15,711 bases of DNA from Nitrososphaeraceae archaeon (GTDB lineage: Archaea > Thermoproteota > Nitrososphaeria > Nitrososphaerales > Nitrososphaeraceae): NCBI GenBank assembly GCA_035297365.1, contig DATGZA010000059.1, forward strand, positions 1 to 15,711, written 5' to 3'. Below are positions 2,060 to 7,788 of this stretch, piece by piece. Numbering within the stretch: position 1 is the first letter of the stretch; every line of letters starts with the position of its first letter. The notes beneath the pieces were generated by a model that was not told the DNA's origin, ran no database searches, and was given only the letters and a program-made list of their open reading frames with translations. A program made the position numbers and the translations under genes.

Positions 2060-2311
2060 ATGGAAGTTCCAAGCTTAAATAAATTTGAAAAACGTGATTT
2101 AGTAATAAAGTTACATAAGGAAGGAAAGACATATAGTGAAATAGCCCACATCGCTCATGTATCGATAAGGGATATATAACCTATAATAAAAAAATATGAA
2201 AAATCAACCTTAAAATCAGGTAAAGATAAAAATAAAAAAAGAACGTTATCACCAGGTAGTCAGGCTTTTAAGTTATTTCAAGAAGGCAAATCTGCTATCG
2301 ATGTAGCCATG
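2060..2311 (+). pseudogene. Pseudogene of a tandem helix-turn-helix protein (Nitrososphaeraceae HTH/coiled-coil family)
   Basis: ATG 2060: MEVPSLNKFEKRDLVIKLHKEGKTYSEIAHIAHVSIRDI*PIIKKYEK...LSPGSQAFKLFQEGKSAIDVAM. In-frame TAA at 2177-2179 lies inside the first HTH. The second HTH (AFKLFQEGKSAIDVA) breaks off at about 2311. Confidence 0.8.
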
Positions 2312-2431
2312 ATGATGACGACATTTTTTCTCTACCTCTTTCCCTTCTTCTCTTTGTTGTTTACAACTGCTGTAGTATACCAAAAACGGGTATATGAATT
2401 CCTATGTAGGATGCGGTCACCGGGATTTGAA

Positions 2432-2454
2432 TTCCCGCCTTACTTTAATAAGGT
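2432..2454 (-). other. tRNA intron 2, non-canonical position 53/54 (T arm)
   Basis: ACCTTATTAAAGTAAGGCGGGAA. Central helix C48CCG51/CGGG, bulge GG|A, 6-bp h' helix CCUUAU/GUAAGG with a 4-nt loop, second bulge AA|U54; outer h helix is weak (relaxed HBh'). Confidence 0.88.
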
Positions 2455-2469
2455 CCCGGGTTGCGGGCT

Positions 2470-2490
2470 TGCTTCGCATGATTTGTTGCA
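2470..2490 (-). other. tRNA intron 1, canonical position 37/38
   Basis: TGCAACAAATCATGCGAAGCA. Strict hBHBh': central helix C32UUC35/GAAG, 3-nt bulges CA|U and CA|A, h' helix GCA/UGC. Confidence 0.92.
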
Positions 2491-2556
2491 TGGAAGGCCA
2501 GTGTCCTAACCAAACTAGACGATGACCGCTTGTCACTATAAAAAAATATTAAAGGA

Positions 2557-2570
2557 TATTAAACCTTACC
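2557..2570 (-). promoter_or_regulatory. Candidate BRE/TATA promoter of the tRNA gene
   Basis: Minus strand reads GGTAAGG-TTTAATA about 28-41 nt upstream of tRNA G1: purine-rich element followed by a TATA-like box. AT-richness limits specificity. Confidence 0.4.
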
Positions 2571-6426: not shown

Positions 6427-7788
6427 TTATTCTCTAAGATAATCAGATAATTTTATGTTCTTTTCTCCTGGAATATGTGCAATTTCAAATCCTTCATTTG
6501 GCTTCAATAAACTAGCAGTAGCATCAATCCCAATCTTAGTTGTTAGTAAATTTTGTTGATCACTTGATGGATCGAGACTAGAGCCTTTCGCATTCTGTAT
6601 AATTAATAACCCTTTATCAGCTTGAAATCTAGTCGATATTGCATATTCCACCTCTGTTGGATTAGACGGATTAATATCATGATCAACTACAATTGCAATT
6701 TTTAGTGATGGGTGGGATGAAAAAGCTGTAATCAAAGCATTTTTTGGTTCTCCTTCTAATCTTTTCCTAATTTGTATGACTGCTGTTAACCAATTACAAC
6801 CACCATCAGTTAAACAGATCTGTAAAGTATTAGGAATTATATTTCTAACTTGATCAAATATCTTTGATTCTATAGGTAAACCCATCAATAGACGATGTTC
6901 CAAAAATCCTGGAAGAATATCGTGAAAGATAGCATTATCTCTAAACCGGATTTTCTCTACTTCAAAGACTGGTTGTTGTCTTTTAAAGTCATATGTTTTC
7001 AACATTTCTACCATCCATTCTTCATGAGTTTTATCTTTTAATATTCTACCTTCTAAAACTATTTCTGACGAAGCTGGAATCAAAAGGTGAGAGTAATTGT
7101 TCATAGCTAAGTGTAGATTACCATTTAGCAAAGTATTTGCTATGAACATTTCATCTATTCCATAAGATGCTTGATAAGCCGCAGCGATATTTACCGCCGG
7201 ATGAACTCCTATCACAATTGCTACTTTCAAATCTTCTCCATGTTCCTTTGCATTTATAAAACATTTATGTAAATGTCTACCTTCTACCATTCTTATTACC
7301 AAATGTTTATCATCTAATTTCAGCAATCTGTGTGTTGATGAATTCTGATTTCCATTTTCCTGATCCTTTGCATAAACTATCGATGAGGTAATATATGGTC
7401 CAGCATCTTTTTCAAAATGAGTAATTATTGGAAGAATTGATAGCTTTGTATTAGAGTTTTGATAATAAGGAACATCACTTGTTATTTTCGTTTTATTGTT
7501 TATTTTATTTATAGATTTATTAATGATATTATGAATCTCTTTTTCATTATTTACACCTAAAGCTAAAGCAAATCTCTTTCTTGTTCCAAGCAGATTACTA
7601 ATTACAGGAATTTTTTTCTCTTCTACATTTTCAAAGATTATGGCCTTCCCGCCATCAACCTTTGAAACTAATGCAGCTAATTCAAATCTCGTATTGACTT
7701 TTTTTCTTATTCGGATAATCTCCTTTTCTTTTTCAAGTATTTTGATAAAATCGTTAAGATCTATATTTTTTTTATTTTTTTTTACCAT
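6427..7788 (-). CDS. ubiD: UbiD-family prFMN-dependent decarboxylase, likely trans-anhydromevalonate 5-phosphate decarboxylase of the archaeal mevalonate pathway
   Basis: DAGPYITS, N.S.HRL, VIGVHPA, SEIVLEG, VVD.DI...NP..VEYAI.TRFQ, GSSLDPS and KIGIDAT are UbiD motifs. The specific substrate is inferred from archaeal context. Confidence 0.9.
   Translation of the reverse strand: MVKKNKKNIDLNDFIKILEKEKEIIRIRKKVNTRFELAALVSKVDGGKAIIFENVEEKKIPVISNLLGTRKRFALALGVNNEKEIHNIINKSINKINNKTKITSDVPYYQNSNTKLSILPIITHFEKDAGPYITSSIVYAKDQENGNQNSSTHRLLKLDDKHLVIRMVEGRHLHKCFINAKEHGEDLKVAIVIGVHPAVNIAAAYQASYGIDEMFIANTLLNGNLHLAMNNYSHLLIPASSEIVLEGRILKDKTHEEWMVEMLKTYDFKRQQPVFEVEKIRFRDNAIFHDILPGFLEHRLLMGLPIESKIFDQVRNIIPNTLQICLTDGGCNWLTAVIQIRKRLEGEPKNALITAFSSHPSLKIAIVVDHDINPSNPTEVEYAISTRFQADKGLLIIQNAKGSSLDPSSDQQNLLTTKIGIDATASLLKPNEGFEIAHIPGEKNIKLSDYLRE

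Follow-up and report, generated by a model that had tools for sequence, protein, structure and literature searches.

The locus at positions 2412..2529 of the window (the whole stretch of DNA that was analysed, 15,711 nt of a contig from a Nitrososphaeraceae archaeon) raises the question of whether an interrupted cloverleaf that standard tools may overlook is a working tRNA gene, and how its precursor might be spliced. A preliminary description, made from the sequence alone, had read the locus as a tRNA-Gly(UCC) gene with two introns. Further analysis confirms that 2412..2529 encodes a real tRNA-Gly(UCC) with two introns. We consider this very probably a functional, single-copy gene with its own promoter, whose precursor is predicted to lose both short introns by the combined action of the endonuclease EndA and the ligase RtcB. 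The genome in which it lies comprises 2.52 Mb in 110 contigs with 30.5% G+C and is 97% complete.

Anatomy of the gene and its splicing motifs

The gene is on the minus strand, with its 5' end at 2529 and the discriminator base A73 at 2412. Searched in E-value mode, the Rfam tRNA model (RF00005) aligned end to end, with model positions 1-71 on 2529..2412 (26.6 bits, E 0.0015), and placed an insert of 22 nt in the anticodon loop and another of 30 nt, corresponding to the 7-nt loop plus 23 nt, between the halves of the T-stem. The score of the unspliced locus is below the Rfam tRNA gathering score of 29 bits, and no match was found in the window at the Rfam gathering thresholds. ARAGORN called no tRNA on the window or on the raw locus and made no call when intron 1 alone was removed, while removal of intron 2 alone gave a 95-nt Gly(tcc) and removal of both introns gave a clean 74-nt Gly(tcc) cloverleaf. 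Removal of both segments therefore restores the cloverleaf, as is required of spliced tRNA introns. The resulting molecule is a class I cloverleaf with the anticodon loop C-U-UCC-A-A, U33 and a purine at position 37, as in a tRNA-Gly(UCC).

Exon 1 (2491..2529, 39 nt, tRNA positions 1-37) contains the acceptor 5' strand, the D-arm, the anticodon stem 5' strand and the loop up to A37, with the anticodon UCC at 2494..2492. It is followed by intron 1 (2470..2490, 21 nt) at the canonical 37/38 site. Exon 2 (2455..2469, 15 nt, tRNA positions 38-53) carries A38, the anticodon stem 3' strand, a 4-nt variable region and the T-stem 5' strand, and intron 2 (2432..2454, 23 nt) occupies the non-canonical 53/54 site at the border between the T-stem 5' strand and the T-loop. 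The remaining T-loop UUCAAAU, the T-stem 3' strand, the acceptor 3' strand and A73 form exon 3 (2412..2431, 20 nt), which was delimited from the Rfam alignment and the family sequences. The precursor body is thus 118 nt long and the mature tRNA 74 nt, and CCA is not encoded. We also observed a U28.C42 mismatch in the anticodon stem (window 2500 and 2465), which is present in every family orthologue read, intron-free versions included.

Both introns can be folded into bulge-helix-bulge motifs. In intron 1, the central helix is formed between C32UUC35 (positions 32-35) and intron bases 16-19 (GAAG), and it is flanked by two 3-nt bulges, C36-A37|U and C-A|A38. With GCA/UGC as the inner helix and the anticodon stem itself as the outer one, the motif has the strict hBHBh' form. 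In intron 2, the central helix pairs C48CCG51 (positions 48-51) with intron bases 18-21 (CGGG), with G52-G53|A and A-A|U54 as the 3-nt bulges. This motif has an inner hairpin of 5-6 bp and an outer helix of a single pair (A46-U55), which corresponds to the relaxed HBh' form. When the strict form is defined by two flanking helices of at least 2 bp each, intron 1 belongs to it and intron 2 does not. For both introns, cutting each bulge behind its second base would fall exactly at the exon end, as verified by hand and with a script. The isotype and anticodon, the exact coordinates, the two intron positions with lengths of 21 and 23 nt, the distinction between a strict motif at 37/38 and a relaxed one at 53/54, and the expectation that standard tools (here ARAGORN and Rfam at its gathering score) miss the gene all stand as the preliminary description gave them.

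Genome-wide, HBh' or hBH motifs are possible at ~0.3% of the combinations of position and length (1,196,003 of ~4.0e8). Against this background, the occurrence of the motifs at exactly the two sites that restore the cloverleaf is not a matter of chance. In nearest-neighbour folding, the precursor has a minimum free energy of -43.9 kcal/mol, compared with -37.7 kcal/mol when both motifs are enforced. The minimum-energy fold contains a pseudo-T-arm, in which the GGGA of intron 2 pairs with the T-stem 3' strand, and the folding shows no preference for the bulge-helix-bulge conformer. Because the minimum-energy fold differs from that conformer, the folding z-score of -3.8 for the precursor is not counted as support.

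Two other kinds of element were considered for the inserted segments. Self-splicing group I and II introns and C/D box guide RNAs have size limits that far exceed 15-42 nt. A group I or II intron is ruled out by the lengths of 21 and 23 nt (15-42 nt in relatives) and has no Rfam family here, and an intron-borne C/D box guide RNA was likewise rejected, as the segments are far too short and Rfam places no family in them.

The surroundings of the gene were also inspected. A promoter-like box, AAGGTTTAATATCC, lies at 2554..2567 on the minus strand, 25-38 nt before the 5' end of the mature tRNA. The A/T-rich core of this box, TTTAATA, is found again at a similar distance in the upstream flanks displayed (17 of 65 distinct), and the consensus of all 65 upstream flanks retains part of this core. 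By analogy with the known architecture of archaeal promoters, we infer that the box is a putative BRE/TATA element. Three ORFs, which encode 66, 43 and 39 aa, lie across the tRNA region. The longest (2309..2509, plus strand) runs antisense to the tRNA; it has no Pfam family and is judged spurious, as had been proposed. Directly 3' of the tRNA on the minus strand, a near-palindrome around GAATTC (TAGGAATTCATATAC, window 2389-2411) was noticed, which is likewise found in several genera, and 61 of the 72 distinct 3' flanks have no T-run within 25 nt. Rfam C/D box snoRNA matches around ATGATGATGA (window 2300-2375, plus strand) are weak and at chance level (E 4.2, well under the cut-offs); no D box was seen, and they are probably nothing.

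Turning to RNA, three studies provided four soil metatranscriptome runs in the form of assembled contigs, which cannot show the absence of a spliced form. The locus is present in these contigs in its unspliced state. They overrun the gene ends by 20-120 nt, and no spliced joint was found in them. These contigs may represent the precursor, read-through transcripts or carried-over DNA.

The locus appears to be the only Gly(UCC) gene of its genome. ARAGORN -i, the Rfam tRNA search and a DNA search found no second copy in the 97%-complete assembly; another intact Gly(UCC) gene, which the preliminary description had named as part of a possible refutation, did not turn up there. The other Gly tRNA genes called by ARAGORN -i are Gly(ccc) and Gly(gcc). 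The genome-wide Rfam tRNA search gave 36 matches at E <=1, of which 32 are over the cut-off; the locus ranks 33rd with E 0.0025. Elsewhere in the genome, the DNA search returned just a 23-nt T-arm match. One candidate, called 'Gly(tcc)' by ARAGORN -i on another contig (C64:2023-2137 of this genome, G000), was rejected; it reads as a tRNA-Asp(GUC) with a ~40-nt D-loop insert, and Rfam matches it over model positions 10-63 alone.

Conservation, covariation and probable intron loss in the family

In DNA searches, 21 of the 24 other genomes in the genus yielded the locus at full length, and 182 of the 200 other family genomes, from 16 of the 18 genera, yielded a match. Among the high-quality family genomes, with the window's own genome counted in, 111 of 114 have a match; both family tallies include four unpublished genomes. 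The double-intron pattern also occurs in at least 119 stretches of named species-representative genomes. Among the 80 matches listed, the labels are Nitrososphaeraceae, Nitrososphaerales, Nitrosocosmicus, Nitrososphaera, Nitrosopolaris, Thaumarchaeota and Thermoproteota; records of the same architecture thus carry the names of the Nitrososphaeraceae and their relatives, the lineage that had been guessed at the outset.

We parsed 88 loci, which correspond to 65 distinct precursor sequences. Outside genus g30, 66 gene copies from 15 genera were parsed, and each of them has the two introns. The exons are almost unchanged over the 65 distinct sequences, and the introns range in length from 15 to 42 nt (intron 1) and from 19 to 33 nt (intron 2), with insertions and deletions confined to the loops. 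The central helix of intron 1 is fully paired in all 52 distinct variants of the first locus set, which contain 32 different inner helices; in 9 of the 52 the inner helix has just 1-2 bp. Three intron 1 variants from g30 have GTAG in the central-helix strand, which is read as a U.U mismatch. For intron 2, every one of the 61 distinct variants retains the central helix CCCG:CGGG together with the two 3-nt bulges. Among them are 44 different inner helices, and the outer helix is limited to 1 bp in 57 variants and reaches 3 bp in the other 4. One genome (G078:C31, L092) has two double-intron gene copies, one of which has an altered acceptor 3' strand (ending ...GACCAAA) and may therefore be a pseudogene copy.

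Covariation was assessed in an alignment of the 65 distinct sequences over 19 pairs of the two motifs. Here, 96.8% of the cells are paired, compared with 35.6-48.6% when the partners are slid by 1-3 columns, and both sides have changed in 149 cells, compared with 6-32 in the slid controls. Such two-sided changes occur in 10 of the 19 pairs, and none of 500 shuffles reached the observed covariation score. The motif helices in this alignment therefore show compensatory change. The central helix of intron 2 is invariant because its 5' strand is exon sequence, and consequently it is uninformative on covariation.

Genus g30 is where the introns vary. In the 51 published genomes that were fully parsed (3 copies cut by contig ends and 4 unpublished genomes were left out), 37 have intron 1 only, 8 have both introns, 5 have the T-arm intron only and 1 has neither, so that intron 1 is absent in 6 and intron 2 in 38. 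The orthologues without one or both introns read exactly CCTTCCA|AGCCCG and CCGGG|TTC(A/G)AAT, which are the predicted spliced junctions; the junctions that the preliminary description had written down, TTCCA|AGCCCG and CCGGG|TTCAAAT, are thus found ready-made in intron-free genes. The intron-free versions also remove a one-base ambiguity at the 37/38 boundary where intron 1 of the relatives ends in a base other than A.

Outside the family, 29 loci from sister families of the same order were examined with ARAGORN. An uninterrupted Gly(tcc) was called in 24 of them (families f4, f8, f9, f10, f13, f18 and f19), and the others comprise one Gly(tcc) with a 16-nt canonical-type intron, two other Gly isoacceptors and two loci with no call. 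Intron 2 was found in none of the 25 outgroup Gly(tcc) genes examined. The simplest history suggested by these sequences is that the introns were gained near the base of the family and precisely lost within g30 in various combinations. A more specific scenario, which we put forward only tentatively and regard as rather doubtful, is that the 53/54 intron was gained once at the base of the Nitrososphaeraceae, then maintained by selection in 15 of the 16 parsed genera, and deleted repeatedly and precisely in the remaining one. Were it true, a single gene in cultivable mesophilic archaea would be a natural test system for tRNA intron loss, with recombination with a reverse-transcribed spliced tRNA as a candidate route. 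The four-state polymorphism in g30 in itself offers a handle on intron loss.

Predicted splicing and competing readings

The genome encodes candidate components of the expected splicing machinery. The gene for the EndA alpha subunit encodes 184 aa with both Pfam domains, and the best solved relatives of its product are crenarchaeal catalytic subunits from Sulfolobus, Aeropyrum and Pyrobaculum (E 4e-44 to 8e-33; 4e-44 to 4.5e-42 for 2cv8, 3p1z_B and 3ajv_B). The Tyr/His/Lys motifs are kept in the alignment, which is gap-free through the loop region and places Lys40 opposite Aeropyrum Lys44. This loop and lysine have been described as the basis of the broad specificity of EndA, and the loop as conserved throughout TACK archaea (PMC5829648). 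A second, beta-like endonuclease gene is present, whose sequence reads without the catalytic histidine, and Thaumarchaeota are stated to have alpha2-beta2 enzymes (Yoshihisa 2014, PMC4090602). With an alpha subunit nearest to the catalytic subunits of crenarchaeal (alpha-beta)2 enzymes and a beta-like partner, the host EndA is, as judged from its genes, probably of the type that the preliminary description had anticipated. The ligase RtcB is encoded by a 493-aa open frame (G000:C12:28413-29720; PF01139, 583 bits).

The beta-like gene (G000:C75 ~77205-77812; L032 1205..1812) is divided, through a change of frame within an A11 run (A-run at L032 1427-1439), into an N-domain ORF of 81 aa and a C-domain ORF of 113 aa. 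A frame split is also found in six other genomes of the genus, with the same run and split in G014, G017 and G006. Among the 17 genus genomes with a match, the open frame is 124-133 aa long in 7 and 198-208 aa long in 9, and it is fragmentary in 1. Possible causes are slippage during transcription or frameshifting, a homopolymer error, and a subunit that really is encoded in two parts.

Based on these features, we propose the following pathway. EndA, composed of the catalytic alpha and the beta-like structural subunit, would recognise the bulge-helix-bulge motif at each intron and cleave between the second and third bases of every 3-nt bulge. Its substrate at 37/38 would be a strict hBHBh' motif that uses the anticodon stem as its outer helix. 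In the motif at 53/54, the central helix would form between positions 48-51 and the last-but-two four bases of the intron and be flanked by the inner hairpin alone (HBh'). Since the 5' bases of the T-stem would be tied up in this central helix, the real T-stem should be unable to form before the intron is removed. Ligation of the three exons by RtcB would then yield a tRNA of 74 nt for the codons GGA (and GGG). We infer transcription, cleavage at both sites, ligation and the order of the two splicing events.

Could the locus instead be a decaying tRNA pseudogene, with junk insertions and a working Gly(UCC) gene elsewhere? Its position below the Rfam cut-off, the absence of an ARAGORN call, the U.C mismatch in the anticodon stem and the 3% of the genome that is unassembled would all fit such a reading. 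However, the same mismatch is found in intron-free orthologues, no other Gly(UCC) gene was found in the genome, and the promoter-like box is conserved upstream. The exons are near-invariant in the 65 distinct sequences while the inserts are under base-pair constraint, and the presence of the gene in 182 of 200 other family genomes brings the pseudogene close to refutation, so that we find it scarcely credible. The idea of a chance cloverleaf in A/T-rich intergenic DNA, or of a piece of a small protein gene, takes its appeal from the overlapping ORFs of 66, 43 and 39 aa. Yet the 66-aa ORF has no Pfam family, Rfam gives E-values of 0.0015 when the region is searched and 0.0025 when the entire genome is, and the conservation follows RNA helices, not codons; this reading is refuted, and we give it practically no weight.

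A further alternative is a partial version of the pathway, in which only the canonical intron is spliced and the T-arm segment is retained or otherwise removed, for example with its 3' end forming a substitute T-stem, which would give the tRNA an extra arm. It draws on the minimum-energy fold, where a pseudo-T-arm arises from pairing between the intron's GGGA and the T-stem 3' strand, on the 53/54 motif having no outer helix, and on the frame split of the beta-like subunit gene in this genome. Nevertheless, exactly this segment is missing in 38 of the 51 published g30 genomes, which leaves a standard T-arm, and the central helix and bulges are kept in all 61 distinct variants with a covarying inner helix, as expected of an endonuclease substrate. 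Moreover, HBh' introns are cut in vitro by loop-bearing (alpha-beta)2 enzymes (PMC5829648). We therefore judge this reading very unlikely, and favour splicing of both introns by EndA and RtcB.

Relation to known tRNA introns

The double-intron gene turned out to occur in nearly all of the family, a group of soil ammonia-oxidising archaea, which, in line with a reservation in the preliminary description, takes away most of the novelty and leaves the call intact. The paper on tRNAscan-SE 2.0 (PMC8450103) reports tRNA genes with multiple non-canonical introns in Crenarchaeota and Thaumarchaeota, and describes an intron model specific to Thaumarchaeota; its count of non-canonical introns in genomes of this group is 107. 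Our gene resembles these in coming from the same phylum-level lineage and in having bulge-helix-bulge introns at non-canonical sites. The portion of File S1 of PMC8450103 that deals with program-version differences has no Gly-TCC row for Nitrososphaera. In the literature we found no paper on this Gly(UCC) structure in Nitrososphaeraceae, and the supplementary tables of PMC8450103 may list the gene.

Further parallels exist outside this lineage. The multi-intron tRNAs of Thermoproteales (Sugahara et al. 2008, as cited in PMC4033280 and PMC4090602) likewise have several short bulge-helix-bulge introns per gene at non-canonical positions and an (alpha-beta)2 host endonuclease. The Thermoproteales are hyperthermophilic Crenarchaeota, and the number of introns per gene is far higher there, whereas here the lineage is mesophilic and lives in soil, and the intron pair is stable family-wide. 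The pre-tRNA-Glu(UUC) of Methanopyrus kandleri combines a strict canonical intron with a relaxed HBh' intron in one precursor, as our gene does, and efficient cleavage of its relaxed intron is reported to need a loop-bearing (alpha-beta)2 enzyme (PMC5829648). In M. kandleri, however, the relaxed intron is in the D-arm (D-loop) and the enzyme has no specific loop, while in our case the intron is at 53/54 and the loop region and lysine are aligned. Introns in the T-arm or T-loop have been described in Caldiarchaeum subterraneum (PMC3082918), in the tRNA-Cys of ARMAN-2 at 59/60 (PMC5829648), in Asgard archaea (preprint 10.64898/2026.10.13.758758) and in the tRNA-Ile(UAU) of the red alga Cyanidioschyzon merolae (PMC9602550). 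These share with intron 2 a T-arm location, which is a reported preferred site, and a bulge-helix-bulge, but they occur in other lineages and other tRNAs.

Taken with these systems, the gene is a sound call and an ordinary member of the known group of multi-intron, non-canonical thaumarchaeal tRNAs, and it leaves the known picture of archaeal tRNA splicing unchanged. It provides a well-supported case of a strict canonical intron combined with a relaxed T-arm intron in a mesophilic, agriculturally important lineage, and its comparative support is unusually rich, coming from 65 distinct sequences, from helices that covary and from orthologues that have no introns. The parts worth keeping are the family-wide conservation and the four-state polymorphism. 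For annotation, the gene also has a practical side. Under standard wobble rules, decoding of GGA requires the UCC isoacceptor. Since this essential Gly(UCC) is missed both by ARAGORN and at the Rfam gathering threshold, family genomes annotated in this way seem to lack it.

The window's genome probably contains other interrupted tRNA genes. A search in which candidate introns were spliced out before scanning gave 56 junction-spanning matches, the majority of which represent known tRNAs parsed in alternative, wrong ways; in this search, which is blind to genes with two non-canonical introns, Gly(tcc), Trp(cca) and Ser(cga) were the only calls that looked sound. The tRNA-Trp(CCA) gene (G000:C12, plus strand from base 7464, 138 nt), which was missed by ARAGORN and recovered by this search, has a 33-nt canonical intron and a 29-nt T-loop intron after about position 58. 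The same search recovered tRNA-Ser(CGA) (G000:C54, minus strand, reverse-complement offset 7047, 123 nt), which has an 18-nt D-loop intron and a 20-nt canonical intron.
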